Below the pieces are notes generated by a model. That model saw only the letters and a program-made list of their open reading frames with translations, had not been told where the DNA came from and did no database searches. A stretch of DNA of 64,000 nt. Source: a virus. The stretch lies in the IMG/VR virus record IMGVR_UViG_3300014775_001776, positions 32,001 through 96,000 of that record. One strand, written 5' to 3'. Position numbers and translations under genes: made by a program. Positions 15,301-64,000 of the stretch are shown here, one piece after another (the stretch's first letter is position 1; the number at the start of each line of letters is the position of its first letter).

Positions 15301-18038
15301 CATTTAATACTGTAAACCCAGATTTAGATCCGTGTGAAAATTCGCTGGTTATTTTTAGTCAACAACAAGGTGAAGAAACATGGGTAACTAAATACAATTG
15401 GTCTCAGTATCCAGATTTTAAAAACCAAAAAATATATATAATGACTCGTGGAGTTGATCCACACGGACCTAGGCAAAAAATGAGATTTGAATTGGGTAAA
15501 TTGTTCGGTAGAAATAATCCAGGTTATCCTGGATGTGTAGTAGAGGGAGATTTTTATATGAATATACCAATACAACCAAATGGTGGACAAAATACACAGG
15601 CTATTTATGACCACAAATCACCTAATGCTATTTATAAGTGGATTCAACAGGAACCACAAAATGGATACTGGGAATCAAATAGTGCTGGTGCGGATTTTAT
15701 ACCTACTATGTCCGATCCTACATTGGCTGGATTTAGTTGTTTTCATAGACCATTTAGTTTTTATATGGGGTTCAATGATCCAGATGATCCTAACTCATAT
15801 GGGAAAAGGTTTCAAACTACAGGATTTACAAATTATGTATCGTTATCGAAAGATATAGCATCTACGATGTCTTATAGGTTTTCAACATACAGTAATTTCA
15901 CGACTGGTAATAGTACTATAGAAAATATTGGAAACTTATCTGCTGGTAATTTGGCGGTGAGGATAAATGGATTTAATACACGTCTTTTAGAAGGTAGTGA
16001 TGGTTGTGGTAATAGAATAGGAGGGACACAGGTTCAAAACTTTGAACAAGGAGATGGTAATCTGGAAAAATATGAAGGTAGGATAGAGGGGTGTAGTCAA
16101 CAATTTGCTAAAAGAAGCTCAAATACTGGGAGTGGTTGTGATAATTGGGGTAGATGTATTGATAGATCGGATGTTGGAACCATTTCACCATCTTACTATA
16201 GAAGTGATAACTCTATACCTCATACTACTTTGTATGGTATGACAGTCTTCAGGACTGATAGATTACCAACGTCGGATTCAATTAGTTTGGGATTTGATGG
16301 TACCCTCCAAGTTGATCAAAGATTTGCTTTACATATGAATCCTAATTTTAGGGCTTATAAGTATGATGATTTTGGAAATATTACAGAAATAACAGGAGGA
16401 AACTTAGGAACTACGCAGAGTGATACTACAGGTAATTTAGACGATAATATAGATGAATTCCCAAGCCAGTTGCAAAGCTTACAAAACTCCTTTACTTGTG
16501 AAGGTATGACATCTATCAAATGTTATCAAGGTGAGGGTGAAGACTTCGGAATTTTATCCCCTTGTGTTGAGGATGTTGGTACACCTAAATTTATTGATCT
16601 TGAATCAAGAACAAAAAATGGATGTTATAGATTTGTAAGGGAAAGGTATTTGAGAACACTAGGAAAGGACTTCCAACTCTTTTTCGAATATAAAGCTAGG
16701 TTTAGATTAATGTTTGCAATGTGTAGAGGAGTACTAAGTCACGTTTTCCAAAATAATTGGATTAACGGTACATTATATTTTCCTTCTTTCCAAAAGAAGA
16801 CAATTTTTGGGATCGAGAATTCTACAACGCAAGAATTATTTCAAAATGCTAGTAGCGACTCTACCTCTATATACACCTTCAACTTCAATGGGTATGTGAC
16901 TATATTAGAAACAGAAAACGTAAGTTCTTATACTTTATTTATTAATGATGAAGAAATTGGAGATGACATAACATCATTCCAATTCAATAGTAATTATGAC
17001 GTATATTTTAAATTAATACCGACAAATCCAAATATAATCTCGTCCATCACAATGGAGGTTACCGATACTAATATTTCTTATAGATATTGTGGAGGTAGTT
17101 CAGATGATGGACCACTTTACTTTAATACGCAAAGTAATTCATTCTTCTATAGATCCACACCATATTACAATAACAACTTCATAGGTCAAACACCTTCTCA
17201 AAGTTATAAAGGGGCTAATAAAAAGAATATATGGTTTCCAACTACAATAATGGATTTAGGTCCTAGAGAGCAATTACTTAAAGAAGTCATAAATTCTGCG
17301 GAATATGAATCTTTTGTGTTAGATAAATTACAAAGTACCTCTTATGAAAGTACAGGGGACATTATAAACTTATTTTTGATTAGTAGACTAGTTAATGCTA
17401 ACTTCTTAGAAAATTTATTCAGTGCAGGAGATGCTTCCGTTAGAGGACTTTTTTCTCGTGATGAGGGTGCTGGGTTCCAGGAGGATAGAGTAGATGGTGA
17501 TTGTGCACAAATGTTCAGTATTAATTCTGAATTCGGTGTGGTACCATACTTAGCTGGAAACTACCTAGACAGTGTTACGGTTTTAGAAAATAGGTTTGGT
17601 ATTTGGTTTGATTCTGATTTGATAGATAGAAGAGAAGTAAATCCAGGAATAACTACTTTTGGAACAAATGAGATTACCTCACCAACAAATTATTTTGGAT
17701 ATACTAGTTCTCAAATAGTACCATATTATAGATGGTATATAGAACCTAATAATGGTCTTTTTGGTGTAGATAGTGAAAATAACTGGAATACCAATGACAT
17801 TTATTCTATGAACTATCAAAATTCACCTTTAGATAGTTCAGGATATGCAGTACCAAATAGCGGTCCTGCTTATGGTTATCTATATAATGCTAGTGTTAAT
17901 GATCCTGAATTAGATATGTTCCCAGGAACCAATCACTCTGTAAAAGTGGGATCACCTTACCATTTTTACTTTGGTCTTCAAAAAGGTAAATCAGCATTAA
18001 ATAAATTTTTAAGTAAGTACTTATTTTTAGAGACATGA
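12378..18038 (+). CDS. Large putative baseplate/tail structural protein, 1886 aa, with an N-terminal prealbumin/carboxypeptidase-regulatory-like fold and an internal hydrophobic segment
   Basis: GIVTGRVIANGGFGIPNANVSV...TVKTNDSGDFMIVGVPLG near the N-terminus; long hydrophobic run at about 13824-13990; located in the baseplate cluster. Confidence 0.6.
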   Translation: MPKNIRIRTQIGEDRNLNVKIDQDFDFLEILSLKIRQEDVYDRFCADYGIVTGRVIANGGFGIPNANVSVFIPLNSMDENDPVISTLYPYKRPSDKNEDGYRYNLLPYTQENYAHNPTGTFPSRNDILTRSEVLHVYENYYKFTVKTNDSGDFMIVGVPLGQQKVVLDLDLSNIGQFSLRPTDLVRMGMGVETQFDGQFFRRSENIDSLPQIIHDVVDVDVASFWGDSENCDVGITRVDFDLRELGVEIEPTSIFMGSFFSSSERDFLKSNCKPKPNTGNLCTLETAPGQILSIRQTIDLDEDGYPILEEYRLENNGNLIDEDGTWMVDLPMNLDYLITNEFGETVISNDPTVGIPTRGKYRFKIKWQSEAGLKKNILRANYLVPNIKEHWLLSGSRPNDFTMNQSYSFSLDWDDYFDKDAAITCKDTFYEFKYNKVYTVSSHIDRFKFGRNRARHLGIKEIDDRECESNINKLPVNDGVRNFDFIFFVFSIMLFLFTPNVFVILPIIHFLAWFWPVIRIIINAIRVFLNAVRRILCKISGIKIAGWYPFKFIKENNPDICEEKPLLGDENPFSNLGLPMLPYPDCETCNCSNEPLPPDTNSPEYQEAQVELAQLSNVSSLADINVYQLYDPVDCQSDGVYPNYDESNDENLQNRMMAFAGNAITNDIPQNNNLGIDASFARWFMSPVYPRRKWEYWEGQEGCVVLKKFWLASDSPTFPQVLNLMNQRARYFAPETANAFELGYYTNASNRFMGIRSRLINDQFNTGGGVTGVGVGGGGGNNTNEPWWDMPLVVLADAGVNWESGNLITFNDPESSAQDDPNLNYYTGGTVGTDNGFGRKGITGLTDYNTNNYIVKEVKWMNPFYTPTNGEDLVKTSQIQYFNTASTTDYKFTSGVEYFQVITGMTVNEFLANFQTTINDDDELVIPDDEIVPYSTGGLVWGTNAGGGQKVGDIKHQSIIYQHLMRSTQRVICNTFNTVNPDLDPCENSLVIFSQQQGEETWVTKYNWSQYPDFKNQKIYIMTRGVDPHGPRQKMRFELGKLFGRNNPGYPGCVVEGDFYMNIPIQPNGGQNTQAIYDHKSPNAIYKWIQQEPQNGYWESNSAGADFIPTMSDPTLAGFSCFHRPFSFYMGFNDPDDPNSYGKRFQTTGFTNYVSLSKDIASTMSYRFSTYSNFTTGNSTIENIGNLSAGNLAVRINGFNTRLLEGSDGCGNRIGGTQVQNFEQGDGNLEKYEGRIEGCSQQFAKRSSNTGSGCDNWGRCIDRSDVGTISPSYYRSDNSIPHTTLYGMTVFRTDRLPTSDSISLGFDGTLQVDQRFALHMNPNFRAYKYDDFGNITEITGGNLGTTQSDTTGNLDDNIDEFPSQLQSLQNSFTCEGMTSIKCYQGEGEDFGILSPCVEDVGTPKFIDLESRTKNGCYRFVRERYLRTLGKDFQLFFEYKARFRLMFAMCRGVLSHVFQNNWINGTLYFPSFQKKTIFGIENSTTQELFQNASSDSTSIYTFNFNGYVTILETENVSSYTLFINDEEIGDDITSFQFNSNYDVYFKLIPTNPNIISSITMEVTDTNISYRYCGGSSDDGPLYFNTQSNSFFYRSTPYYNNNFIGQTPSQSYKGANKKNIWFPTTIMDLGPREQLLKEVINSAEYESFVLDKLQSTSYESTGDIINLFLISRLVNANFLENLFSAGDASVRGLFSRDEGAGFQEDRVDGDCAQMFSINSEFGVVPYLAGNYLDSVTVLENRFGIWFDSDLIDRREVNPGITTFGTNEITSPTNYFGYTSSQIVPYYRWYIEPNNGLFGVDSENNWNTNDIYSMNYQNSPLDSSGYAVPNSGPAYGYLYNASVNDPELDMFPGTNHSVKVGSPYHFYFGLQKGKSALNKFLSKYLFLET

Positions 18039-19744
18039 GTAATTTGAAAACAGATAGTATAAGGATCGTAAAAGGATCTGAAAGGTTTGCAGGTTCCACG
18101 GATAATGATATGTCTTTAGATATTGAATTGAGGGCGGATCAAAAGAATTATGTTGAAAAAGATCGTACAACAATACTAAATCTTGCTGAAAGATTTGATG
18201 TAGAACGTCAGATAAGTAATAAAATAAGAGTATCGGGAAAAATAACTAATATTTTTAAAAATGATATTGTTGGTACATCTACATATGAACCTTTTTTGAA
18301 CAATTTGTTTTATGTTAATCCTGAAGTTACGGTACAGAATGGTTCCCCATTTAAAGGTTATCCACCTGCGGATGAATTTGTATTTGTCAGAACTACCGTC
18401 CCTGTAGGTCATATACCATATAACTCAGAAAGTGCATCTACTTATAATTGGAGAGTCTATTTAAGTTATCCATTTGAAAATGATTATGATCAAGAATTAC
18501 AATTTGAAGACGAACAGACTAATATAACAAATCAATATGTTGTGTCGGATGGTATACCATTCATAATAAAAAATAAAAAAAGTCGAGGAAAAAATCTTAT
18601 CTATTTTTATTGTGCATATAATCATAACCTACAAATAGGTGAATCAATCGAATTGACGCAACCTATTGATGGTAGAACAATTTTTGAAGTCTATAGTCTT
18701 GGTGATAATAGTTACGGAAACGACAAAAAAGTTTTTACAATATACAACTTTGGTTACCAACAATTTTTTGAAAATACTATAGGTAATTTTAAGAGAATAA
18801 TAGATATTAATAACCCTGAAGAAACAAAGTCAGAGTATTATTGTAGAAAGCATAAAATACTATTTAATAGTAAGGATGTTGATATTGTAAAACTTGCATA
18901 CGAACAAAATCCATTTTTTATAGAAAAAAAATTACAATATTCGGCACTAACACCAAACAATGTTGAAAGACTGGCTGTTAAAGAAAATAGTCAGACGTAT
19001 AGTCTGACATTTAATAAAGACCTTGACATAAGTGGACTTAGGGATAATAATAAAAGACCTTTGAGTAGTTTATTTGTTACAATAGTAAAAAGTGGATACA
19101 TTGGATGGTTTAATAACGCGGTTCCTGCTGGAAACACTACTAGTATCGAAGTGGGTTGGGACATGAATTTTTCAAATGATCAAATTGATGGATGGTGGTC
19201 AAAACTAAACCCCTATAACCGTGATAATTTACCTAATAATCACTACACAATAAATGGTAGAGATTTTTATTTTACAAAAGAATTAGAAATAGGAACAGAG
19301 ATCAAAGGAGATATTTGTGAGTGGAATGAATACGATCAAAAAGAAAATGTTTTATCAAGTATTAACCACAAAATAAGTTTCAATCTAAATAATTTTAATG
19401 ATGGGTCAGACGAAAATCCTAATCTACCTAATGGATATAGTTATAAACCTCATCATGAAGTAAAAGTAAAACAATTTTCGGATTCAGTTGAGTTTGGTGA
19501 TAAAGATAAGATAGATCAATTTCCAGATTATGCATTTTTTTCAGATTATGACCAACAATGGAGATGGAGAGACTTATATGATTATGGTTTTATAGATGAA
19601 AATGGAGACGGGGTTAATTTCCCTTTTTTGAATGGTTCTCACTATCCATTTAAAGAAATAATATTTTTACAAACACCTATGTTTAAGAACTTAAATCTAT
19701 TTACAGATATAATAATTGCACCAAATACGGACGATTGTGAATAA
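18035..19744 (+). CDS. Putative baseplate-region structural protein, 569 aa
   Basis: ATGA coupling to the upstream gene; aromatic/Asn-rich; C-terminal WRWRDLYDYGFID...FPFLNG.HY. Confidence 0.65.
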   Translation: MSNLKTDSIRIVKGSERFAGSTDNDMSLDIELRADQKNYVEKDRTTILNLAERFDVERQISNKIRVSGKITNIFKNDIVGTSTYEPFLNNLFYVNPEVTVQNGSPFKGYPPADEFVFVRTTVPVGHIPYNSESASTYNWRVYLSYPFENDYDQELQFEDEQTNITNQYVVSDGIPFIIKNKKSRGKNLIYFYCAYNHNLQIGESIELTQPIDGRTIFEVYSLGDNSYGNDKKVFTIYNFGYQQFFENTIGNFKRIIDINNPEETKSEYYCRKHKILFNSKDVDIVKLAYEQNPFFIEKKLQYSALTPNNVERLAVKENSQTYSLTFNKDLDISGLRDNNKRPLSSLFVTIVKSGYIGWFNNAVPAGNTTSIEVGWDMNFSNDQIDGWWSKLNPYNRDNLPNNHYTINGRDFYFTKELEIGTEIKGDICEWNEYDQKENVLSSINHKISFNLNNFNDGSDENPNLPNGYSYKPHHEVKVKQFSDSVEFGDKDKIDQFPDYAFFSDYDQQWRWRDLYDYGFIDENGDGVNFPFLNGSHYPFKEIIFLQTPMFKNLNLFTDIIIAPNTDDCE

Positions 19745-20570
19745 GTTTAGATTTACAATATCAGATTTAGATCAACAAATCAATATTCCAGTAAAAATTG
19801 ATTTTGATCTCAATGGACAAGAAGATTTAATCAAAATATTTGAAAATGATGTAATAGATAAAGTCATAAATCCAATCAAAAATTTTGAAACGATCAAATT
19901 CTCACATAAGCCAATAGGCGATCCACCAAAATCGGAAATAAATTATATATTTAATTTTTTCGATTATAGTCAAAACATATCAAATACATCTTTTGGGGAT
20001 TCTGAATTATGGATTAACGATTACAATTCAACGACAAACCCAGATTTTACAGGACAGTCCTTTACTGATAAAGAAATATATTATGGTGCGAATTCATTCA
20101 AAAGAAGTTTTTTCAAATTAGATTTTTATGATAGTAAAAACTCATCAGATCAAAAAAATTACTTTACAGTTATAATACCAACACAACAAGGGGGAAACGT
20201 AATAAGAAATATTGGAACAGAACTGGTTCCCAATAACGTAAAAATTCGTATACCTAACTTTAAATTAGACTATGTGGGGGATAAAGAAGGGTTTTATATA
20301 TATTTCACTGAAGATTTATCTTTAATATCTTCTAATACTTTCTTTATGTCAGTTAAGTTCTTCAACGCAAAAATAGGAGAGTTTGTGAGGTTTTTAACCT
20401 CACCACAATCGATCATTTCTACCAAATTTAATTTTAAAAAAGAGGATTATTTTTATCACAAAATTGTAATGGATTTTGAATCATTAAAATATTCAGTTTT
20501 TAATGATCAAGACCAACTAATAGGAAGTGAGAATAATCCAATAAACTGGTATGAATATGTAAATCCATGA
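19737..20570 (+). CDS. Putative structural protein (probable GTG start at 19737)
   Basis: In-frame GTG overlapping the upstream gene end is more plausible than the TTG at 19716; SFKRSFFKLDFYD motif; ends WYEYVNP. Confidence 0.65.
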   Translation: MNKFRFTISDLDQQINIPVKIDFDLNGQEDLIKIFENDVIDKVINPIKNFETIKFSHKPIGDPPKSEINYIFNFFDYSQNISNTSFGDSELWINDYNSTTNPDFTGQSFTDKEIYYGANSFKRSFFKLDFYDSKNSSDQKNYFTVIIPTQQGGNVIRNIGTELVPNNVKIRIPNFKLDYVGDKEGFYIYFTEDLSLISSNTFFMSVKFFNAKIGEFVRFLTSPQSIISTKFNFKKEDYFYHKIVMDFESLKYSVFNDQDQLIGSENNPINWYEYVNP

Positions 20571-21520
20571 GTCAAGATAAATATTATTTTAAAATTTCAC
20601 CTGAAGTTTTACAAAAAGACATAATAGAAAAAAATTACGATGAAGTAGAATTTGGTTTATATAAACCAATAGAATATGTTTTGCAAAATGGTATAATCCA
20701 AGAGTTGAATTTTACAATATCACTGTCACAAGATATTAAAGATATTGGTTTTTACACTCCTTTTGATGGTACAGTAGATCAACTGAGTCAGATTACTAAT
20801 TTTATAATATCAGGAAACCCGATTAATATCTATGAAATAATATTTTTTGATACATCAATAAAAGAAGGTAAAATAAATATAGGATCGGAATTTACAATAG
20901 ATTGGGGTGATGGATTATCAGAACAAATAAATCCTTTTTTGAATGATTCTATATCGCACATTTATCCATTTGAAGATAATAATTATACAATAACATATAC
21001 TAGAAAAAACAAATGGGGTGAAGTTGAAATAAAAAAAACCATTTCGATTCCGTTTAATCCTTCTAATGTTGAGGGTGAAATTTCATATGAAAATGAGCCT
21101 TTTATTATTAGTGGTTATACAAGTTCGAAACTTAATGAATTGAAACTATATGGTCAGATAAAATATGAGACTTTAAGACCAATAATTAAAAAAGGAGAGT
21201 TTTATGGTCAGGTGACTGAAATGAACGATCAGTATACAGCTTATACAGTTAATCAAATAGATTATTTCGATTATTCAGATGGTACTACAATTTTCTTTGT
21301 TGAGAGTTATGGACTTAATGAAGAGAACCAAGTCTATTCAGGTACAACAAAAGAAGAAGTTCTTTTAGGAATTGTAGATTCTCCAGAAATACAATCAGAA
21401 GTATTTATTGATAGAGGTAAATTATCAGGTTTGGAAAGTTTACAAAGACTAGGTGAAATAGACAATATTGGTGATTTACAAAACTACGGGTATAAATATT
21501 TTAAAATTAATAATCAATAA
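20567..21520 (+). CDS. Putative structural protein with a PKD-like Ig domain
   Basis: FTIDWGDG...ISHIY....YTIT matches the PKD WDFGDG/H.Y/Y.V pattern; ATGA-coupled. Confidence 0.6.
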   Translation: MSQDKYYFKISPEVLQKDIIEKNYDEVEFGLYKPIEYVLQNGIIQELNFTISLSQDIKDIGFYTPFDGTVDQLSQITNFIISGNPINIYEIIFFDTSIKEGKINIGSEFTIDWGDGLSEQINPFLNDSISHIYPFEDNNYTITYTRKNKWGEVEIKKTISIPFNPSNVEGEISYENEPFIISGYTSSKLNELKLYGQIKYETLRPIIKKGEFYGQVTEMNDQYTAYTVNQIDYFDYSDGTTIFFVESYGLNEENQVYSGTTKEEVLLGIVDSPEIQSEVFIDRGKLSGLESLQRLGEIDNIGDLQNYGYKYFKINNQ

Positions 21521-21522
21521 TT

Positions 21523-22431
21523 ATGGCACTAGGAAGTTATGGAACCCAAAGACCGGCAGATGTTTTACCCTCTGATGTCGAAGTAATATTAAACTACTCA
21601 CCAAGTAGGGATGTAAGTAATGATACTTTACTTAAAAAATTAAATGCGCAAGATGTATTAACTCCTTTATATCATAACAGTAATACAGGGGGTAACCCTA
21701 ATGTTGAAGTAATTGGTGGATTATATAATCTTAAGTTACCTTCATCAGAATTTAATAAAATAGGTATATATACTCTTTATATTAAACCTGTAGAAATAAG
21801 AACCACAATAAGAGATTGTGGTGTTTTATCAGCGCTCCCAAATGTAAAAGGAATAATTTTAGATATTACACAAGTACCGTCTGAATTCAGAAGTAGATTT
21901 ACAAATAATGGATTAGTGGGGTATAGAGTAGAATATTTAAATAATGACGGGAGTAAGACGAACAATTTTTTTAGAATTATCACATCTTCTTTTTTCTGTG
22001 AGCCAGTAGTTTCTAATCAAAGTAATACTACTCAGAAAAGTATTAGATATAGATATGTTGATAATGGTAGTGATTTGATATTTTTGACATTATCACCTTC
22101 GAGTGCACCATCTAATAAACCAAACGCAACACCGTTTATTGGTAACCCAGATCAAAACATTATTGTAACTAATACATTTTTTAATCCAGTTTCTATAGAT
22201 ATTCAATTAGCTGAACATGATATTGATACGTTGGCATTAGCCTTATATGGTAATCAGACTAAGAGTATTGAAGACGGTATCTATACAATTTATGATAACC
22301 AACTTAATATATACAAACAGTATAACTTATTCGAAATCAGAGATGAATTTAATAATTTATTATATGAAGTCCGTCAAAATAGGAATGATAATATAGACTT
22401 CAGTAAAAATTTCACTAGCATCATTGAATAA
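21523..22431 (+). CDS. Putative structural protein, 302 aa
   Basis: Tightly packed in the baseplate operon; no recognised motif. Confidence 0.65.
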   Translation: MALGSYGTQRPADVLPSDVEVILNYSPSRDVSNDTLLKKLNAQDVLTPLYHNSNTGGNPNVEVIGGLYNLKLPSSEFNKIGIYTLYIKPVEIRTTIRDCGVLSALPNVKGIILDITQVPSEFRSRFTNNGLVGYRVEYLNNDGSKTNNFFRIITSSFFCEPVVSNQSNTTQKSIRYRYVDNGSDLIFLTLSPSSAPSNKPNATPFIGNPDQNIIVTNTFFNPVSIDIQLAEHDIDTLALALYGNQTKSIEDGIYTIYDNQLNIYKQYNLFEIRDEFNNLLYEVRQNRNDNIDFSKNFTSIIE

Positions 22432-25367
22432 TGGCTGATAATAAGTTTAGATATCCACCAGCACCTCCTAATGGAGGTGATACGTTCTCTAAGAACTTAG
22501 TTGGTTTGCAAATCACTGATGGTGGAGGACTAACTCAAGGGAATTTTGATTTTGGTAGTGGTGTAAGTGAAAAGAGTAATAGAAACTTTGATATAGGTGT
22601 TTTCTCCGATCCAATCACTTTAAGTGATTTACAAGTTAATTCAGTTAATGAAGCTAGAGAAATCGCATCCAAAAAGTTTAATGTCTACCCAAATTATGAT
22701 CTTACTAGGGTTACTAATTATGCTCTTTATGGTTCATTAAGAAAAAGATTATCAGCTTCGGTAACTAAAATAATTAATAATTTTCCAGCGGCATTACAGG
22801 TAAATTTTATTTCTAATAATTATACAACTGGTAATACTGCATATGATATTACATATGATATTAATAACAATGTTACAGAGCTAAAGATAGATGTTAACAG
22901 ATTAAAAAACCCTTTTGGTATAGATTATTCGAAAAACTCAAGTAGAAACATTTCATTGAATCCAATTGGTGTGAGTGAGGTAAGAGATTTAACTAATAAT
23001 TTCAGTAAATATTCATTATATGTTGATAATGAGTTTAATAATGAATTTAATCTTGTTGATTTCGAGCCATCTGAATTTGTTAGTGGGGGAACAATTACAC
23101 TATTTGTAAATGGTAACCCATTCTTAACAAATACAACAACTAAAACTCTAGTAATTAAGCCTAGTAATTTAGAGACTGAAAAAATATTTGATCAAAGTTT
23201 TGATGAAGTCGAAAAATTCATACTTAATAGACAAATTGTACCAAAATATACTGCTGAATTCCAAGTAATTGAGGAAGACATTAGTGGTAGATATTTCAAG
23301 ACTAATAAAAGAGCAACATGGCCACTTGATGGTGAATGGAATTTAGATATTGTTACAAATAGTTATGAAGAATATTTAGAAAAACTTAATAGTATTGGTG
23401 AAAGTCTGGATGAGTTTAAAACAGATTTAATCTCCAGATTTTTGACTACAGGGGCATTTAAAGATTTCGATACTGATGACCAAAAAATGGAAAAAGTTCT
23501 ACAACTATATGGTAGAAGTTTTGACGAAATTAAAAAATTTATAGACGCTTTAGCACACATAAATTCTGTAAATTATAATGTTCAGGATGATATACCTTCT
23601 CAGTTATTAAAAAACTTATCTATGACATTAGGATGGAACACTGATATTTCTCCGATCAGTAACTCAGATTTCTTAGAATCAGTTTTTAATACAAAAGAAG
23701 GATCAATATACAGTGGATTATCAAAGGATAAAAGTCCTGCAGAATTGAATTACCAATATTATAGAAATTTAATTTTAAATTCTGCATATCTTTTTAAGTC
23801 AAAAGGTACTCATAGGTCTCTAGAATATTTACTTAGATTCATAGGTGCACCAAAGGCATTGATAGAATTTAATGAGACGGTTTATTTAGCTGATGGTCCG
23901 ATCAATATTAATAATTTTAATCAAGAATTTAATTCATTCTCCGGTGGTTCTAAGATTATTACCGATACTGTATTAGACCCTAATGATGTGTTTAGTTTTG
24001 AAGGTGTTCAATACACAGGATTTACAACTCAAAGTAGAGTGGTAAATGTTACTGCCACACTCGAAGATTTTCCAGTAGATGAGTTAGGTTATCCTAAAAG
24101 TCCTAAACAAACTGAAGAGTATTTCTTTGAACAAGGTGCGGGATGGTTCCAACAAACTCCAGATCACAGGTCACTAGAAGTTTTAGATGTTGGTAATTCT
24201 ACATTCACTGGACAAAATTCTAATGTTCAAACAACATTAGAGTCATTCACGTATGGTGAAAAATATCTTTCGAGATACAAATATTTCCCAGAAATGAATA
24301 TTGGATTTGGAATTACAAGAACAATAGATAATCAAAAGTCATGGGCTTATGATGAAACAGGACTAAGAAAAAATAGTAATCAAGGATTTAATTCATATTA
24401 TCAGGTTTCGGATGAAAGACTTGTCATAAATGCAAAAAACATAGAAGTATTTTTGAATATGGGTCAAGGACTAGTCTATGATGTTTGGGATATGTCCAGA
24501 AAATTCAATTATCCAATTCCTTCTTCAGGATTGACCACAGAATTGTTAAATACTACTGGTACTGACAGAACTATAATAGATCCTAAACCCCAAGAAAAGA
24601 CCTTCTTTGAATTTGCACAAACATTTTACAGAAATTTAATAGACGTAAAAAAACGTCAGACATCATATTACACTTACCCATCTTTACAACAAATTTATTG
24701 GGATTACTTACAATCGGAAGAAAATATCAATATTCCATCCAATAAATACACTTACCAAAAAATGATCGATTTTACCAACGGTCTAGGTAGTTACTGGACA
24801 AAGCTACTAGAACAAGTTGTTCCTGCGACAACACTTTGGACTGGTGGTCAGAAACTCGAAAACAGTGTCTTTCACAGGCAGAAGGTAGTGTGGAGAAAAC
24901 AAAGAGGATGTGAAATAGTACCAATTCCTTGTATACCTTGTACTCTTACAGGACAAATATTTGGATACGATTGTGTCACGAAAGAATTAAGTTGTGATAT
25001 TACTACTAGTTTATCATCAATATTGAATTCAACCTTACAAAACTTATTAAATACTAATAACTTAACCACTTCTAATTGTGATCTAAATTCTTTGACTAGT
25101 GAATGGTATGTCTTGTTCAAACTAGATGAAAACGTGATATTAGAAGAAAATTTTTATTCAGGCAATGGGAGTAATGATTTTCCTACACAAGATGAATGGT
25201 ATAATTCGGTACTAGAAAATTTGAATATTTTTACGACTTATGGTCTTGTTTATACTGTGAATGAAAATGTCATTAATATTCAGAATGCTGGGTGTGATAC
25301 ACTATTTGAAGAAGAATCACTTTCCATAAATGCGAAAGTAGATATTTCAATTAATTGTCAGACATAA
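22431..25367 (+). CDS. Baseplate wedge-like protein (P2 gpI / T4 gp7-type motif), 978 aa
   Basis: PSQLLKNLSMTLGW...YRNLILNSAYLFKSKGTHRSLEYLLRFIG matches the gpI-type 'L..LA..LG....R.....Y..KGT...L' pattern. Confidence 0.6.
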   Translation: MADNKFRYPPAPPNGGDTFSKNLVGLQITDGGGLTQGNFDFGSGVSEKSNRNFDIGVFSDPITLSDLQVNSVNEAREIASKKFNVYPNYDLTRVTNYALYGSLRKRLSASVTKIINNFPAALQVNFISNNYTTGNTAYDITYDINNNVTELKIDVNRLKNPFGIDYSKNSSRNISLNPIGVSEVRDLTNNFSKYSLYVDNEFNNEFNLVDFEPSEFVSGGTITLFVNGNPFLTNTTTKTLVIKPSNLETEKIFDQSFDEVEKFILNRQIVPKYTAEFQVIEEDISGRYFKTNKRATWPLDGEWNLDIVTNSYEEYLEKLNSIGESLDEFKTDLISRFLTTGAFKDFDTDDQKMEKVLQLYGRSFDEIKKFIDALAHINSVNYNVQDDIPSQLLKNLSMTLGWNTDISPISNSDFLESVFNTKEGSIYSGLSKDKSPAELNYQYYRNLILNSAYLFKSKGTHRSLEYLLRFIGAPKALIEFNETVYLADGPININNFNQEFNSFSGGSKIITDTVLDPNDVFSFEGVQYTGFTTQSRVVNVTATLEDFPVDELGYPKSPKQTEEYFFEQGAGWFQQTPDHRSLEVLDVGNSTFTGQNSNVQTTLESFTYGEKYLSRYKYFPEMNIGFGITRTIDNQKSWAYDETGLRKNSNQGFNSYYQVSDERLVINAKNIEVFLNMGQGLVYDVWDMSRKFNYPIPSSGLTTELLNTTGTDRTIIDPKPQEKTFFEFAQTFYRNLIDVKKRQTSYYTYPSLQQIYWDYLQSEENINIPSNKYTYQKMIDFTNGLGSYWTKLLEQVVPATTLWTGGQKLENSVFHRQKVVWRKQRGCEIVPIPCIPCTLTGQIFGYDCVTKELSCDITTSLSSILNSTLQNLLNTNNLTTSNCDLNSLTSEWYVLFKLDENVILEENFYSGNGSNDFPTQDEWYNSVLENLNIFTTYGLVYTVNENVINIQNAGCDTLFEEESLSINAKVDISINCQT

Positions 25368-56571: not shown

Positions 56572-57840
56572 ATGCCTAGAAAAAAAGAAACAATATTTGT
56601 TCAGATTGCATCATACAGAGATCCAGAACTAGTAAATACTCTGGAAAGTATGATAAAAAACGCTAAAAGACCAAAGAATTTGGTAATTGGTATTTGTAGA
56701 CAATATCATCCAGAAGATGGATTTGATAACTTAGATAAGTGGAAAGATGATAAAAGATTTAGAGTAATCGATGTACCTTATACTGAAAGTAAGGGAGTTT
56801 GTTGGGCAAGACACCAAGTCCAACAAGTTTATAGTGGTGAGACCTATACACTACAGATTGATTCACATATGAGATTTGAAAAAGATTGGGATGTTGAGAT
56901 GATAGGTATGGTAAAGCAATTACAAAAAATGGGAATACCAAAACCATTATTGACATCATATGTTTCTTCTTTTGATCCAGAAAATGATCCACAAGCAAGG
57001 GTTACAGAACCATGGAGAATGGCTTTTGATAGATTTATACCTGAAGGTGCGGTATTCTTCTTACCAGAAACAATACCCAATTGGAAAGAATTAGATACCC
57101 CAGTTCCATCTCGTTTCTATTCTGCCCACTATGCGTTTACGTTAGGAGAATTTTCAACAGAGGTACAACACAACCCTGAATATTATTTCCACGGTGAAGA
57201 AATTTCAATTGCTGCTAGAGCATATACTTGGGGTTATGATTTATTCCACCCACACAAAGTTTTAATTTGGCACGAATATACTAGAAAAGGTAGGACAAAA
57301 CAATGGGATGATGATAAAAAGTGGGTAGATCGTAATAAGCATTCGCATCTTACAAATAGAAAATTATTCGGAATGGATGGTGAAATCCAAGAGGGTCACG
57401 ATGGTAAGTATGGTTTTGGACCTGTGAGAACTTTAGAAGAATACGAAGAATATAGTGGATTACATTTTCAGAAAAGAGGAATACAACAATATACATTAGA
57501 TAAAAACTACCCACCAAACCCAGGAATCGATACATTCGAAAATAAAGAGGCTTGGTTAGATAGTTTTGCAACAATCTACAAGCACTGTATTGATGTTGGT
57601 TATGATTCTGTACCTGAAAAAGATTATGAATTCTGGGTGGTTGCTTTCCACGATAAAGAAGATAATACAATTTTCAGAAAAGATGCGGATAAGGGTGAAA
57701 TTGATAGAATGATGAGAGATCCTGATGGTTATTGTAAAATTTGGAGAGAATTTAATATTACTGAGAAACCAGCATATTGGGTTGTTTGGCCATACTCAAC
57801 TGAAAAAGGATGGTGTGAAAGATTAACAGGTAATCTTTAA
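56572..57840 (+). CDS. GT60-family (Pfam 'GlcNAc') UDP-GlcNAc:polypeptide/hydroxyproline GlcNAc-transferase homologue with an extra C-terminal domain
   Basis: TIFVQIASYRDPEL, GICRQ, SKGVCWAR, YTLQIDSHMRFEKDWD (DxH metal motif), FHGEEISIAARAYTWGYDLF: the motif set of Dictyostelium Gnt1/Gnt2-type GT60 enzymes. Confidence 0.8.
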   Translation: MPRKKETIFVQIASYRDPELVNTLESMIKNAKRPKNLVIGICRQYHPEDGFDNLDKWKDDKRFRVIDVPYTESKGVCWARHQVQQVYSGETYTLQIDSHMRFEKDWDVEMIGMVKQLQKMGIPKPLLTSYVSSFDPENDPQARVTEPWRMAFDRFIPEGAVFFLPETIPNWKELDTPVPSRFYSAHYAFTLGEFSTEVQHNPEYYFHGEEISIAARAYTWGYDLFHPHKVLIWHEYTRKGRTKQWDDDKKWVDRNKHSHLTNRKLFGMDGEIQEGHDGKYGFGPVRTLEEYEEYSGLHFQKRGIQQYTLDKNYPPNPGIDTFENKEAWLDSFATIYKHCIDVGYDSVPEKDYEFWVVAFHDKEDNTIFRKDADKGEIDRMMRDPDGYCKIWREFNITEKPAYWVVWPYSTEKGWCERLTGNL

Positions 57841-57861
57841 ACTAAATTATAATTCTACTAA

Positions 57862-59568
57862 ATGACTACACCTACTAAAAATGAAAAGAGTAAAGTAACA
57901 ATTGTTACAGGAATATGGGATATTAAAAGAGAGGAGTTAACGGAAGGTTGGTCCAGATCATATGAGCATTATATCCAGAAGTTTAAACAACTTCTGGATA
58001 TGCCATATAATATGATAATTTTTGGAGAAAAAGATTTGAAAGAGATTGTTTTCGAAAATAATTATAGAGATCAATCAAATACACAATTCATTCAAAGAGA
58101 TCAAGAATGGTTTAAAAATCATTTTTATGAACAAATACAAGAGATCAGAAATAATGAATCGTGGAAAAATCAAGCAGGGTGGTTAGCAGATTCTACACAA
58201 AGTAGATTAGAAATGTATAATCCACTAGTTATGTCAAAACCATTTTTGTTGAATGATGCTAGAATTTTTGATAAATTTGATTCTGAACAATTGTTTTGGT
58301 TAGATGGTGGAATTACTAATACTGTACATTCTGGGTATTTTACACATGATAAAGTACTCGATAACTTAGAATTCCATGACAAAATATCATTTTTAGCATT
58401 TCCATATGTTGCAGATAAAGAAATACACGGATTTGATTACGAAGAGTTATGTAGGTTATCTGGTGCAAAAGTAGACAAGGTATGTAGAGGTGGATTCTTC
58501 GGAGGATCGAAAACAGCTATCGAAAAGTTCAGTAGTCAATACTACGGTTTAATGAGTTCCACACTTCATAGTGGATTTATGGGTACTGAAGAATCACTAT
58601 TCTCAATTCTTTTATATCAAGATACTGAAAATTATCAATACTATTCAATAAATGGAAACGGACTAGTTTCTAAATTCTTTGAAGATCTTAAGAATAAAAC
58701 AAATGAAGTAAAAAAAGAAAAGACAAGAATAAGAGGTAGTAAGTCGAAATTAGATGTAAATAATGTTGCGGTTTATATTTTAACTTTCAACAGTCCGAAA
58801 CAATTAGAAACTTTATTTAGGTCTATGTTATACTATGATAATGACTTCCTAAGTAAACCTGATATTATTGTAATTGATAATTCTGTTGATGCAAGTACAT
58901 ACGATGAATATACAAGGATATGTCAAGATAATAATGCAACACACGTTAAAATGGAAGAAAACTTGGGGGTGTGTGGAGGAAGACAGTATGTTGCAGAGCA
59001 CGCTGCGAAAGCAGATTATGACTATTATTATTTCTTTGAAGATGATATGTTCTTCTATCCAAAAGAGGGTGAGGTTTGTAAGAATGGTTTTAACAGATAC
59101 GTAAAAGGTTTATACAGAAAATCATTACAGATTGCTAAGAAAAATAATTTTGATTTCTTGAAACTCTCTTTCTCTGAGTTTTATGGTGATAACAGAACAC
59201 AATGGGCGTGGTATAACGTACCACAATCATTCCGTGAAGAACATTGGCCAGAAAAACCAATTTTACCTGTTCAAGGTTTAGACCCAAATGCTCCAAAAAC
59301 GGCAATCACTAAAATTGATTGTTTCGAGGGTATACCATTTGCTCACGGTGAGATTTACTATTGTAACTGGCCTCAGGTGGTTTCAAAATATGGTAATAGA
59401 AAAATGTTCTTAACTGAGAAATGGGTACGTCCATTCGAACAAACATGGATGTCTTATATGTTCCAAGAAACAATTAAAGGTAACATATATCCAGGTATTC
59501 TTTTATTGAGTCCTACAGAGCACGATAGATTTGACCATTATGATGGAAATTTGAGGAAGGAATCCTGA
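57862..59568 (+). CDS. Two-domain glycosyltransferase: N-terminal HtrL/YibB-like, C-terminal GT2-like (GT-A)
   Basis: N: VTIVTGIWDIKRE...RSYEHY...YNPLVMSKPF...FWLDGG...GGFFGG...GTEE. C: VYILTFNSPKQL...IVIDNS...ENLGVCGGR...YYFFEDD. Confidence 0.72.
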   Translation: MTTPTKNEKSKVTIVTGIWDIKREELTEGWSRSYEHYIQKFKQLLDMPYNMIIFGEKDLKEIVFENNYRDQSNTQFIQRDQEWFKNHFYEQIQEIRNNESWKNQAGWLADSTQSRLEMYNPLVMSKPFLLNDARIFDKFDSEQLFWLDGGITNTVHSGYFTHDKVLDNLEFHDKISFLAFPYVADKEIHGFDYEELCRLSGAKVDKVCRGGFFGGSKTAIEKFSSQYYGLMSSTLHSGFMGTEESLFSILLYQDTENYQYYSINGNGLVSKFFEDLKNKTNEVKKEKTRIRGSKSKLDVNNVAVYILTFNSPKQLETLFRSMLYYDNDFLSKPDIIVIDNSVDASTYDEYTRICQDNNATHVKMEENLGVCGGRQYVAEHAAKADYDYYYFFEDDMFFYPKEGEVCKNGFNRYVKGLYRKSLQIAKKNNFDFLKLSFSEFYGDNRTQWAWYNVPQSFREEHWPEKPILPVQGLDPNAPKTAITKIDCFEGIPFAHGEIYYCNWPQVVSKYGNRKMFLTEKWVRPFEQTWMSYMFQETIKGNIYPGILLLSPTEHDRFDHYDGNLRKES

Positions 59569-59595: not shown

Positions 59596-59614
59596 AGGTT
59601 AAGTGTATCTTTAA

Positions 59615-62600
59615 ATGTCAGGATTTAAATTAGGTCAAAAAGTATTATTGAGTAATGGTTCTCAAGTTGAAATAGAAAATATTCAACTTGGGGACCAATT
59701 ATTTTCTTTTGATATACCCGAAATCGTTGTCGGTAAAGATTTCCGTGACATTACTTTTCCATCTATAGATGTTGAAAATGTAAGAACCCCTGAGGTAGTT
59801 GAGGTCTACCAAAATGAGGGTAACTATATCCAAATTAATGATTTGGGTTTAATTGATGAGTATGTCTTAGCTTATCACAAACAATCAAAACAATATCAAT
59901 TTGTTCACACCACAGATTTACTTGTTGGTGGATATTATGATATGGTTAGATATGTGGAGGGTGATATTGTCCACGAGGAGGTTGTCAGTAAAGAAATTGT
60001 ATATTCTTTTGACCCTCTTTATAACTTAAGTCTTACTAAACCTAACTACTATGTTTTGGATGGTTATATCGTCCATAACGTAGGTTATGCTTGTATTTCA
60101 CCATGTGACCCCGCATTAACCCAAGTGGCGTGTATACAAAACGTATATGGTTTTACCACTGGAAATGCTTTTATTGATAATCTTAATGTTTGTTGGGAGG
60201 TAATAAGTGTAGGACCTTGTGAGGGATGTTCTGCTAACGTATCATTTATTGGTAGTGTGGTGTCCACTTTTGAAAACTGTGATGGTTGTAGAGGTGGTGG
60301 AGAGCCGGTGCCTTTTGACCCTGAGAATCCTGAAAATCCTTATGATATTGGTAATGCAGAAGACCCTTGTTGTGTTTATCTAATTGCTTGTAGTGATATT
60401 GACCCTGGTGCTTGTGCAGAGTGTTCATATACTCTGAATCAACAATATGTTACCATTAACAATTTAACTCCGTGTCCAAATGCTGGTCAGGTTGTTAAGT
60501 TAGATACTTGTGATAACTGTTGTTATTTCATTGAGGGAGTGGTTCCTAACTGTACTCCTGTTGCCACTTGTGATGCTACGGTATATGAAACGTGTACTGA
60601 GTGTTGTAATGCTGCACCACCTGAGTCACCGACCCCAACACCTACTCGTACTCCAACTCGTACTCCATCTCCAACACCTACTAAGACTCCGACTCCCACA
60701 CCAACACCTGCGGTTGATAAGTATTTAATGGCTAATTGTTGTGATGAGAATGATACAATAATTCTTTCTGTACAATCTGGTACTGTAATTTATCAGGGTG
60801 ATGGTGTTATTAACCCATTAGGTAATAATAAGTGTTATTATGTTGTAAACTCTTCAACAGGCACTCCGGATGCATTTGTTGATGCGGGTAGTTGGATTGA
60901 GCAGATATGTGATTATCCTGAATGTCCTACATGTCCTTCACCTACACCAACCCCGACTAAAACGGTAACGCCTTCACCTACTCGTACCCCAACTAATACT
61001 CCTACTGCGTCTGTTACTCGTACTCCTACGAATACTCCGACCAACACGGTAACTCCTTCTATAACTAGAACCCCAACAAATACGCCAACCGCATCGGTAA
61101 CGAGAACCCCAACCGTTACTCCAACAAATACGGTTACACCATCTATTACTAGAACTCCTACAAATACTCCTACTGCGTCTGTTACTCCTTCTGTTACTGC
61201 CTCAGTTACTCCATCACAAACCGCAGCGGTTACACCTACAAATACGCCGACAAATACGGTCACTCCGTCAATCACACGTACCCCAACGAATACTCCAACA
61301 TCATCGGTAACTCCATCGGTGACTAGGACGCCAACAGTAACTCCGTCTATCACTCGTACACCGACTAATACTCCTACTAGTACGGTAACACCATCTATTA
61401 CACGTACTCCAACGAATACGCCGACACCTTCTATCACCCCAACGAACACCCCAACACCATCTATTACGCCTTCTGTAACTAGAACACCAACTAATACTCC
61501 TACGAGTACGGTCACTCCTTCTATTACTAGAACACCTACGAATACTCCAACCCCGTCAATTACGCCAACTAACACTCCAACTAACACTGTTACTCCTTCA
61601 ATCACAAGGACGCCAACTAATACGCCGACCAGTACCGTAACACCATCTATTACTCGTACTCCGACTAATACTCCAACACCGTCAATAACCCCTACAAATA
61701 CTCCCACGAATACAGTTACTCCTTCAATCACAAGGACACCGACAAATACACCAACGTCAACTGTAACTCCTTCTATCACTAGAACACCAACTAATACTCC
61801 AACGGCTTCGGTTACCCCTACTCATACGCCGACAAATACGGTTACCCCATCTATCACTCGTACACCAACGAATACACCAACTGCGTCTATCACTCCGTCC
61901 AACACTGTAACCCCAACGGTTACTCCATCTATTACTCGTACTCCTACAAATACACCTACGGCGTCTGTTACTGCAACTCCAACTGAGACCCCGACAAACA
62001 CGCCAACAAATACGGTAACTCCGTCAATTACTCGCACCCCTACAAATACACCAACGGCATCTGTAACACCATCTGTTACTGCTTCGGTAACACCTTCTCA
62101 GACCGCTGCGGTTACACCAACGAATACCCCGACAAATACTGTTACTCCTTCAATTACTCGCACACCAACAAACACACCTACATCTACGGTAACACCTTCT
62201 ATTACCAGAACACCAACTAATACTCCAACGGCATCTGTAACTCCAACAAATACTGTAACACCATCTATAACTCGTACACCAACGAATACTCCTACGGCGT
62301 CTGTTACTCCATCTGTTACTGCTTCGGTAACTCCGTCTCAGACTGCCGCAGTTACTCCTACAAATACGCCAACGAACACAGTTACACCTTCAATTACTAG
62401 AACACCAACCAATACTCCAACTGCTTCAGTTACACCATCTAATACTGTAACCCCATCTATAACTCGTACTCCTACTTATACTCCAACTTCTACTGTAACT
62501 CCTTCTATTACTCGTACACCTACCAATACTCCGACAGCATCTGTAACTGCTTCGGTTACTCCGTCTGTTACCCCAACTGAAACTCCTACGAATACTCCAA

Positions 62601-64000
62601 CAGCATCTGTTACACCATCACAGACGGCTGCGGTTACTCCTACAAACACACCTACATCTACGGTAACACCATCATTGACTAGAACTCCAACTAATACTCC
62701 AACTGCGTCAGTAACTGCAACACCTACGAATACTCCTACGAATACGGTTACACCGTCAATCACTCGTACTCCGACAAACACTCCAACTGCGTCTGTAACG
62801 GCATCGGTAACGCCATCAGTAACTCCAACTGAAACACCAACTAATACACCTACTGCGTCAGTGACTCCGTCACAAACGGCTGCGGTTACTCCGACAAATA
62901 CTCCTACATCAACAGTTACTCCATCAATCACTCGTACTCCGACAAACACACCAACGGCATCAGTAACTGCGACACCTACTAATACGCCGACATCAACGGT
63001 AACGCCTTCTATTACTAGAACCCCGACATATACACCGACTGCTTCAGTAACGGCTTCGGTTACTCCATCTATTACTCCTACTGAAACCCCAACACAGACT
63101 CCAACGAATACTGTTACTCCGTCTATCACTCCAACTGAAACTCCGACTAACACTCCTACGGCTTCAGTTACACCATCGGTAACTCCAACGGAGACGCCAA
63201 CGAACACTCCAACTGCATCTGTTACTCCATCTCAAACTGCGGCAGTTACACCAACAAACACTTCTACTCCGACAAATACTCCTACATCAACTGTAACACC
63301 AACACAAACGGTAACTCCTTCAAATACTGTTACTCCAACATTCACGCCGACAAATACAATAACCCCTACAAACACGGTAACTCCGTCTAATACTGTTACT
63401 CCAACATTTACTCCAACAGCATCAGTCACCCCATCTGTAACACCAACCGAAACGCCAACTAATACGCCAACCGCATCGGTAACACCATCGGTAACGCCAA
63501 CTGAGACCCCAACGAATACTCCAACAGCATCTGTAACACCATCTCAGACTGCAGCGGTTACACCTACTAATACACCAACATCGACTGTAACACCTACTGC
63601 GACGGTTACACCAACCAATACGGTAACACCTTCAAATACGGTAACTCCGACTTACACTCCAACTAATACGATTACCCCTACAAATACGGTAACTCCATCG
63701 AATACCGTGACACCTACCTTTACACCTACCGCTTCTGTTACTCCGACAGAAACACCAACTCAAACGCCAACAAATACTCCAACTGCGAGTGTCACTCCTT
63801 CTATTACTCCAACAGAGACACCAACAAATACTCCTACCGCATCTGTTACACCATCTCAGACTGCTCAGGTTACTCCTACGAATACACCGACATCTACGAT
63901 TACTCCAACGGTTACTTCATCGGTAACACCAACTGAAACGCCAACACAGACTCCAACTAACACTCCAACTGCGTCAGTGACCCCTTCACAGACAGCCGCA
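59615..64000 (+). CDS. Giant mucin-like protein with an N-terminal Hint (intein-like) domain; 3' truncated, at least 1462 aa; absent from the supplied ORF track
   Basis: Translated by hand through about 61000 (remainder checked for frame at the window end): [31 protein letters not shown]...[21 protein letters not shown](155)-VGYAC..., about 3 Cys-rich modules, then Thr/Pro repeat ending in frame at nt 64000 (...TPSQTAA). Confidence 0.85.
60935..64000 (+). repeat. About 1020-codon Thr/Ser-Pro mucin-like tract (units such as [16 protein letters not shown])
   Basis: Composed almost entirely of T, P, S, V, A, N, I, R with some E/Q; synonymous codons are scrambled, so DNA copies are imperfect. 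Confidence 0.9.

Follow-up and report, generated by a model that had tools for sequence, protein, structure and literature searches.

A nucleophile-less Hint domain as a candidate self-removing leader at the start of a giant mucin-like phage protein

What does a Hint domain do at the extreme N-terminus of a giant mucin-like phage protein when the residues that would cut its front end have been lost and those that would cut its back end have been kept? The question is raised by a stretch of viral DNA of 64,000 nucleotides (IMG/VR record IMGVR_UViG_3300014775_001776, positions 32,001 to 96,000), hereafter the window. It derives from a large, uncultured phage whose baseplate is of the T4 type. 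The relevant features are listed below in window coordinates.

56572..57840, + strand: GT60-type GlcNAc transferase (Pfam PF11397, E 7e-69; phrog_24687, E 8e-166)
57862..59568, + strand: HtrL/YibB-like and GT2 fusion glycosyltransferase (Pfam PF09612, E 2e-13; PF00535, E 2e-6)
59615, + strand: ATG of the ORF with the N-terminal Hint cap; in-frame stop two codons upstream
59615..60079, + strand: N-terminal Hint domain, residues 1-155 (AF2, VIA-align, profile against the PDB, dN/dS)
59621..59623, + strand: Gly3 at the intein Cys/Ser-1 nucleophile position (aligns with Cys1 of P0031, P0032 and P0035)
59852..59863, + strand: degenerate block B, I80-D-E-Y83 replacing T-x-x-H (aligned with canonical VTGNH, VTWEH and TTEYH)
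60074..60079, + strand: His154-Asn155, the block G C-terminal cleavage dyad (His 60074-60076, Asn 60077-60079)
60080..60082, + strand: Val156 at +1, predicted to become the new N-terminus VGYAC... (variable column in the family)
60080..60634, + strand: Cys-rich, beta-rich module, residues 156-340, with 22 Cys; N-terminus of the predicted mature protein
60635..64000, + strand: Thr/Pro/Ser-rich mucin-like repeats, running about 6 kb past the window to a stop at G000:C1:99339

The ORF runs off the end of the window, as the original prediction had said of a gene with no stop there, and encodes 2574 aa in the full record. A mis-called start codon was considered and rejected: besides the stop two codons upstream, the same start Met is found in every homologue of 14 loci, with a stop 0-7 codons upstream. 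Residues 1-155 have a computed mass of 17.9 kDa, within the 17-18 kDa that had been predicted for a released fragment, a pI of 4.4 and zero cysteine. No endonuclease lies within the Hint domain and its N-extein is Met-Ser alone, so placing it at the extreme N-terminus was correct; there is nothing at the N-terminal junction to cut off anyway. The Cys-rich module that follows has Cys columns that are invariant in the family alignments and an AF2 pLDDT of ~80. VIA-align of residues 156-340, taken as part of a larger model, gave a best Z of at most 4.3 and no convincing fold, and comparison with the ESM atlas gave no usable match. A query with this domain returned only already known contigs, with no Hint-less homologue found at that sensitivity. 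The mucin-like body (T 41%, P 19% and S 10% across residues 346-2330) ends in a second Cys-rich domain. The giant protein is probably O-glycosylated, and we infer that it is a virion fibre from the genes around it and from the collagen repeats and tail-fibre-type S74 chaperone domain seen in relatives.

The two glycosyltransferase genes upstream keep constant company with the Hint-mucin gene. In all six mucin-type loci the GT60-type gene lies upstream of it in conserved synteny, and the HtrL/YibB-like and GT2 fusion gene is found immediately upstream of it, again in 6/6. The locus is therefore a testable phage system for mucin-type glycoprotein synthesis.

The Hint pattern that had been read across residues 3-155 from the letters alone is recovered as a fold. 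AF2 modelled the domain with a pLDDT of 87 and a pTM of 0.82, and a second AF2 model of 345 residues, built with family sequences only as input, reached a pLDDT of 82 (two-part pTM 0.58). Over model range 1-155, VIA-align returned Z scores of 16.9 against the Tetrahymena BIL2 structure 6tmm, 16.6 against hedgehog (1at0) and 16.5 against a Clostridium BIL (2lwy), with superpositions at an rmsd of about 1.9-2.0 Å over 127-134 residues. The top 50 Foldseek matches were all BIL, intein or hedgehog Hint structures at probability 1.00. At the level of sequence, the family profile matched BIL2 (6y75) in the PDB at E 6e-9, phmmer against 1.84 billion proteins found canonical tandem-Hint proteins at E 1e-7 to 1e-4, and the ESM-atlas neighbours of the domain were phage clusters with PF07591 or PF14890. 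Single-sequence Pfam matches are collinear with a Hint domain, with Hom_end_hint at residues 4-31 and the end of Intein_splicing falling precisely on residue 155, at scores under the gathering cut-offs (PF05203 and PF14890; 17.1 vs 32.1 and 15.2 vs 35.8). Single-sequence phmmer of the domain against the PDB gave no match, and no PHROGs family covers this part of the protein. The match to Hint is far above chance, and the models identify residues 1-155 as a mini Hint domain of the bacterial-intein-like kind, with the horseshoe-like, all-beta fold of the superfamily.

The block motifs stand as the original prediction described them. Block A reads G3-F-K-L-G-Q-K-V and blocks F/G read LYNLSL...[11 protein letters not shown]; TxxH has given way to I80...Y83, position 1 and +1 are Gly3 and Val156, and His-Asn is intact. 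Across the family, 27 of 31 non-redundant relatives have Gly at position 1 and the MSVKNGQ subgroup has Ser; none has Cys. Both Thr/His columns of block B are variable, as is the column of the block F His, which is Asn144 here; the F:4 Asp is missing too. The +1 column holds V in 19 relatives, I and S in 3 each, F in 2, and A, L, N and P in one each. Since +1 is mostly a non-nucleophile, splicing is excluded; the lack of a position-1 nucleophile and of block B, together with Val at +1 and the absence of any Cys, makes both N-junction cutting and splicing impossible.

None of the Hint classes compared here shares this combination in full. Class 1 inteins share its His-Asn, while their position-1 nucleophile, block B TxxH, +1 nucleophile and conserved host protein are all absent here. 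The features of class 2 (Cys at +1) and class 3 (block F Cys, WCT triad) are also absent, given Val at +1 and no Cys in residues 1-155. A splicing intein of class 1, 2 or 3 was accordingly rejected, there being no nucleophile at position 1, +1 or block F. A-type BILs come closer, with a C-terminal His-Asn that needs no +1 nucleophile and a variable host protein, but their Cys1, block B TxxH and N-terminal flank are not present (only two residues precede the domain). A Hog-Hint is not indicated either: Gly3 replaces Cys1, His-Asn is present, and a Cys-rich module lies downstream where a Hog-Hint has its sterol-recognition region.

Conservation of the dyad was a point on which the original prediction had staked itself. 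All 31 non-redundant relatives (24-82% identity) have His-Asn, including 25 retrieved with queries lacking the motif. The survey it proposed, for homologues with His-Asn beside a lost position-1 Cys, gave the same answer throughout the family. The dyad is present in every locus from the HN-free queries that reaches the domain end and in all phmmer matches of the unbiased full-database search. Its codons vary synonymously (CAT 25, CAC 6; AAT 27, AAC 4), and the block G strand varies beside it (GYVIHN, DYVVHN), never in H or N. Decay has thus been differential, position 1, block B and the block F His having drifted while His-Asn stayed fixed, and the alignments indicate that the dyad is under strict purifying selection. 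For the Hint domain as a whole, six of the seven informative pairs gave dN/dS values of 0.11-0.17; with this and the missing endonuclease, the earlier view that it is not a parasitic intein holds. The relatives come from many metagenomes and all 31 share an identical architecture. All known members lie on contigs of uncultured viruses or metagenomes: two of them used as tblastn queries had no match among 50,697 GenBank phage records, a scan of the genomes of 185,579 species gave no relative, and a single-protein scan of IMG/VR gave no match. By baseplate, the nearest relatives are Flavobacterium phages, so the hosts may be marine Bacteroidota.

The same Hint cap heads both mucin-like and collagen-like giants, the collagen-type clade being nested inside the mucin-type clade in the tree. 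A second Hint lineage, forming a phylogenetically separate clade that groups with canonical tandem Hints, caps adjacent collagen genes. Its position 1 is S, A or G, its His-Asn is kept, and the collagen repeat begins exactly at +1, as in L013:4480-7968 (HN|TGPTGP); judged by the tree, the design seems to have arisen independently here. One relative, P0040, starts with a Hint and ends with a self-cleaving S74 chaperone. A virion-docking domain, too, would be expected to look like a conserved N-terminal module carried on differing fibre bodies.

With the front-end cutting residues lost and the back-end His-Asn strictly kept, a natural self-removing leader is the most likely, predicted, role of the domain. 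We modestly favour the reading that the Hint cap undergoes autocatalytic cleavage by Asn cyclisation, releasing a mature protein that starts VGYAC. In this scheme the domain would fold in the host cytoplasm, and the side-chain amide of Asn155, assisted by His154, would attack its own backbone carbonyl. Formation of a succinimide would break the Asn155-Val156 bond, freeing the 17.9-kDa Hint fragment and a 2419-residue mature protein with the Cys-rich module first. Cleavage might, speculatively, aid folding and oligomerisation or act as a self-removing assembly lock, an N-terminal counterpart of the C-terminal S74 chaperone. Timing and release from the virion, which the original prediction proposed beside folding and assembly, are purposes of the same conjectural standing. 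There is precedent for the chemistry: C-terminal cleavage without a +1 nucleophile occurs in A-type BILs with His-Asn, and position-1 intein mutants serve as C-cleaving tags (PMC7765530). In studied inteins, Asn cyclisation is ~200-fold faster once the branched intermediate has formed (PMC7765530). That intermediate cannot form in the Gly3 Hint cap, which counts against cleavage, as does the loss of the block F His, a reported aid to Asn cyclisation. In intein tag systems a beta-branched +1 residue may slow cleavage; Val or Ile is usual at this position here, and Pro occurs once.

The main rival, which we consider rather unlikely, is a non-cleaving docking or oligomerisation module, in which a co-opted Hint domain attaches the long fibres to a conserved virion partner and His-Asn is kept for packing or partner binding. 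The cap and first Cys module are conserved while the mucin- and collagen-like bodies are swapped, which is the pattern of the N-terminal anchors of phage receptor-binding proteins; the Asn-cyclisation helpers (the block F and block B His) are gone, and in many inteins the uncoupled reaction is slow (PMC7765530). However, the Hint fold itself is independent of His-Asn, as seen from Hog-Hint (1at0) and from B-type BILs without the dyad, and such Hint folds without C-terminal cleavage do not retain it (PMC7765530). Here it is the sole retained catalytic motif and marks the precise end of the domain in two independent lineages; in the second, the collagen repeat starts at +1. Neighbouring positions of the block G strand tolerate changes that H and N do not, which also speaks against a role in docking alone.

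The same conservation of His-Asn would suit a variant in which the Asn155-Val156 bond is cut and the Hint fragment stays bound non-covalently, giving a fibre-virion joint that could be released mechanically or chemically. In mucin SEA domains and adhesion-GPCR GAIN domains, the fragments made by autoproteolysis remain joined in this way. In the 345-residue model, strand 158-163 continues straight from the last Hint strand (151-155), but the pTM of that two-part model leaves the interface unsupported and inteins normally release their exteins, and we regard this variant as improbable. Least credible by far is a degenerating parasitic mini-intein or a chance resemblance. Pfam scores beneath the curated cut-offs and the missing catalytic residues of the N-terminal junction would fit it, yet the fold match is strong, one architecture recurs across the family, and the domain, which lacks both an N-extein and an endonuclease, does not interrupt a conserved host protein. 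Purifying selection over the whole domain in the six pairs shows that it is not a decaying relic, a candidate that conservation, fold match and dN/dS effectively refute.

Returning to self-removal by Asn cyclisation, a broader and more tentative proposal can be made. Nucleophile-less N-terminal Hint caps may be a general maturation device of giant mucin- and collagen-like phage fibres that evolved at least twice. They would serve as self-removing pro-domains, either intramolecular chaperones or assembly locks, relying solely on Asn cyclisation with the block G His-Asn as the minimal catalytic set, and would form a new functional Hint class, the natural counterpart of engineered C-cleaving tags. 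Full-text literature searches, reaching only a minority of subscription-journal papers, returned no account of phage fibres capped by a Hint at the N-terminus. Should cleavage be confirmed, the cap would be an example from nature of a Hint that opens a protein and is dedicated to cutting at its own C-terminal end alone; intein biotechnology reached the same arrangement by mutation, and no natural case was found in the literature searched. Its removal would be a new maturation step for giant phage surface proteins, beside the S74 chaperone already known at the C-terminus. The cap would likewise show a minimal active site for Asn cyclisation, with no Cys, block B His or block F His, of use for work on mechanism and for small, cysteine-free cleavable tags.

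Several known systems resemble the phage cap in part. The PT-HINT domains of polymorphic toxins act as peptidases that release what lies downstream of them in a large protein (PMC3482391), as is proposed here, but are internal, keep their N-terminal nucleophile and free a C-terminal toxin, whereas the phage cap would free a 245-kDa mucin-like body. Peptidase S74, the chaperone of phage tailspikes and fibres, is a functional analogue, a terminal module that assists in assembly before removing itself (PMC7824862); its fold is unrelated and its chemistry uses a Ser-Lys dyad, and it is C-terminal and experimentally established, while cleavage by the phage cap is predicted.

Among the nearest sequence relatives of the cap are canonical phage BIL-type Hints (P0032, P0035 and L063:5983-6999). 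P0032 is sister to the cap family clade with weak support (83/30), and P0032 and P0035 share an LP...W(S/T) insertion with the cap. Canonical phage Hints occur in structural-type proteins with Thr/Pro or Thr/Gln linkers and Cys knots. Unlike the phage cap, P0031, P0032, P0035 and L063 keep Cys1, TxxH and His-Asn, and the Hints of P0032, P0035 and L063 are internal and flanked on both sides rather than N-terminal.

A-type BILs (Clostridium thermocellum 2lwy; BIL2 of the Tetrahymena BUBL locus, 6y75/6tmm) share with the cap a mini Hint fold, a C-terminal His-Asn without a required +1 nucleophile and residence in variable, non-housekeeping proteins. They are able to cut at their C-terminal end via Asn (PMC7765530, which cites Amitai 2003 and Dassa 2004). 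BILs nevertheless keep Cys1 and block B between two flanks, whereas the cap has Gly, no block B and no Cys at the extreme N-terminus; BIL2 also passes its N-terminal ubiquitin-like cargo to lysines, which is impossible for the cap. In arrangement the cap resembles engineered C-cleaving tags (position-1 mutants of mini-inteins such as Ssp DnaB or Mxe GyrA), in which an N-terminal Hint without its first nucleophile and with His-Asn intact precedes a cargo protein and cleaves by uncoupled Asn cyclisation (PMC7765530). Those tags were made in the laboratory and still have their block B and block F helpers, whereas the phage cap is a natural domain, pared down further and conserved across phages.

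The mucin-like gene starts at ATG 59615, with an in-frame stop two codons 5' of the ATG; no Shine-Dalgarno motif was found at 59600-59614. It was noted to lack a stop within the window, and the ORF indeed continues past the window end, reaching 2574 aa in the whole IMG/VR virus record (104,710 bases; CheckV completeness 35%). The window spans positions 32001-96000 of this record. The gene's parts and neighbours, including those on L002, the locus that runs past the window end, are as follows:

12378-56503 (+): five giant ORFs in succession (1886, 3751, 1510, 1960 and 2891 aa) separating the baseplate gene from the glycosyltransferase genes, interrupted only by five mid-sized ORFs at 18035-25367
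56572-57840 (+): GT60 GlcNAc-transferase
57862-59568 (+): HtrL/YibB+GT2 fusion
59615 to past the window end (+): Hint-mucin ORF
Residues 1-155 (59615-60079): N-terminal domain, 155 residues
Residues 156 to about 340: Cys-rich module
Roughly 2000 residues: Thr/Pro/Ser-rich repeats (T 41%, P 19%, S 10%)
C-terminal end: second Cys-rich domain
L002:7778-8653, just beyond the window end: 291-aa protein 3' of the giant, with Cys-rich/TP-linker modules in common (same BLAST family)
L002:8655-10043: the next protein, 462 aa, with SprB repeats (Pfam E 3e-17)

The N-terminal domain contains no cysteines, compared with 41 in the other 2419 residues, where they cluster in the N- and C-terminal modules. 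The source virus is a large, deeply divergent myovirus-type phage: it has genes for a wedge protein of the Baseplate_J/T4 type, for a helicase like DnaB and for a class I ribonucleotide reductase, its large ORFs all lie on the same strand, and the closest cultured relatives of its baseplate protein, from Flavobacterium phage immuto and Microcystis phage Mel-JY01, share ~26% identity. The neighbouring SprB-repeat gene and the missing Shine-Dalgarno motif hint at a Bacteroidota host.

The N-terminal domain is a Hint domain. Two collinear, sub-threshold Pfam matches were found, Hom_end_hint (residues 4-31) and Intein_splicing, the latter profile ending precisely at residue 155. Searched exhaustively with phmmer, 1.84 billion representatives yielded 36 matches, consisting of family members and canonical tandem-Hint proteins (CFLxGT...VHNK; E 1e-7 to 1e-4). 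Against solved structures, the family profile best matched 6y75/6tmm (E 6e-9), the BIL2 (bacterial intein-like) domain of Tetrahymena (PMC8616854), with weaker scores for PI-SceI, the DnaX mini-intein and a C. thermocellum BIL. The original prediction of a Hint fold within residues 1-160 is upheld by AlphaFold2, which gave pLDDT 87 and pTM 0.82 for residues 1-170, and pLDDT 82 for residues 1-345 with family sequences as the only input. Foldseek's top matches were exclusively BIL, intein or hedgehog Hint structures. VIA-align (48,161 chains) gave Z-scores of 16.9 for BIL2, 16.6 for hedgehog 1at0 and 16.5 for BIL 2lwy (24% identity), with rmsd ~1.9 Å; the aligned model range is 1-155, and the fold therefore ends at Asn155.

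Alignment with the nearest canonical relatives (P0031, P0032 and P0035, each with Cys1, T-x-x-H and HN) bears out the predicted residue pattern: Cys1 is replaced by Gly3 and the block B Thr and His by I80 and Y83, while the block G dyad His154-Asn155 is intact and followed by Val156 at +1. Beyond that prediction, the block F His is also gone, being Asn144 here. A splicing intein of any class is excluded, as the nucleophile is absent at position 1, +1 and block F.

About 40 related loci were recovered from IMG/VR and JGI metagenome scans. The pattern used in the first scan included the His and was thus biased for HN conservation. The three later scans used queries stopping short of HN (residues 1-140); every locus from these that extends to the domain end keeps HN, even where adjacent residues are altered (e.g. 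GYVIHN, DYVVHN). Loss of HN among homologues would have counted against the original proposal, yet the dyad is present in all 31 non-redundant sequences (24-82% identity), H154 and N155 being among only 12 invariant columns. Their codons vary synonymously (His CAT 25/CAC 6; Asn AAT 27/AAC 4). Position 1 is Gly in 27 of the 31 and never Cys; in the MSVKNGQ subgroup it is Ser, preceded by Met alone. The columns for blocks B and F are variable, and the +1 residue can be V, I, S, F, A, L, N or P. For the domain as a whole, six pairs gave dN/dS values of 0.11-0.17 and one pair gave 0.55. Across the 14 loci of the first set, all homologues share the start Met, and a stop lies 0-7 codons before it. 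This conservation, together with the fold match and dN/dS, effectively excludes a decaying intein or chance likeness.

The cap, with an invariant Cys nine residues past HN, occurs on two types of giant protein:

Mucin-like (L003-L008): Thr/Pro-rich bodies, 2034 to >2865 aa
Collagen-like (L009-L016): Gly-X-Y bodies, 1177-1902 aa

In all six mucin-type loci the GT60 and HtrL/YibB+GT2 genes (56572-59568 here) lie upstream, the fusion being the immediate neighbour; some loci carry 2-3 more conserved ORFs in between in this region. The pair resembles a conserved cassette that would glycosylate the Thr/Pro repeats, and its position in all six loci fits a putative O-glycosylation of the Thr/Ser repeats. 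Fibre identity of the family is supported by P0040, a 494-aa member, since in it the N-terminal Hint and Cys module are followed by collagen repeats and, at the C-terminus, by a Peptidase_S74 self-cleaving intramolecular chaperone (SDSRLKN motif). P0040 thus has self-processing-type modules at both termini; P0041 (790 aa) is a similarly short member. On L061, a 1002-base marine contig (coverage 1.35), a Hint ORF resembles the family over 96 residues and then continues into a tail like a type IX secretion C-terminal sorting domain (NIYPNPV...); it is probably an assembly chimera. A 338-aa protein at L063:5983-6999, a separate locus, carries a canonical phage BIL-type Hint (CFIEGT...TEYH...THN/IKQ) flanked on both sides by small Cys-knot modules (C..G.C...G.Y....C...C) and Thr/Gln linkers, and adjoins a 1672-aa structural giant ending in the same Cys-knot module.

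In collagen-type phages, the gene immediately 5' of the Hint-fibre encodes a second collagen giant with a different N-terminal Hint:

L009:4574-7987, L012:4472-7987, L013:4480-7968 and L016:3461-7969: upstream collagen giants with second-lineage Hint

This Hint reads MS.IH[S/A/G]LH...EPDHNYFVG.LLVHN/TGPTGP. Position 1 is occupied by S, A or G, HN and the His of block F are both retained, and the collagen starts precisely at the +1 Thr (HN/TGPTGP). In a maximum-likelihood tree, a single clade (support 100/99) unites the mucin-type and stand-alone caps with those of the downstream collagen proteins, collagen bodies falling within mucin-type diversity. The upstream-collagen caps form their own clade (100/99), grouped with canonical tandem Hints (95/91), which suggests that an N-terminal Hint design without a nucleophile evolved twice, albeit in a tree with long branches for a short domain.

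In Hint domains, the C-terminal Asn forms a succinimide, breaking the bond to +1 with assistance from the penultimate His (PMC7765530). A-type BILs keep HN and cleave C-terminally without a +1 nucleophile, and C-cleaving tags are inteins with a position-1 mutation; B-type BILs and hedgehog Hints are without HN and show no C-terminal cleavage of the Asn type (PMC7765530). As the N-junction machinery is all lost and HN is frozen exactly at the domain boundary, we favour, by a modest degree, selection for Asn155-dependent cleavage. This would split off a 17.9-kDa piece and leave a 245-kDa protein with the N-terminus VGYAC. Against it stand the missing block F His, the beta-branched +1 residue, and the ~200-fold slower Asn cyclisation without a branched intermediate (PMC7765530). 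The main alternative, a docking or oligomerisation module that is never cleaved, is a less probable though serious reading: virion anchors look like one conserved N-terminus on exchanged bodies, while the frozen HN speaks for cleavage. That the Asn155-Val156 bond is cut and the Hint fragment stays bound seems improbable.

Neither 50,697 GenBank phage records nor genomes representing 185,579 species of prokaryotes held a relative, and the literature searched does not describe phage fibres that carry a Hint cap at the N-terminus; a jumbo-phage survey treats the S74 domain alone in this role (PMC7824862). The cap is real and well conserved, and belongs with the BIL-type Hint autoprocessing domains, a known kind in which it is placed as a phage variant with predicted autoprocessing activity.
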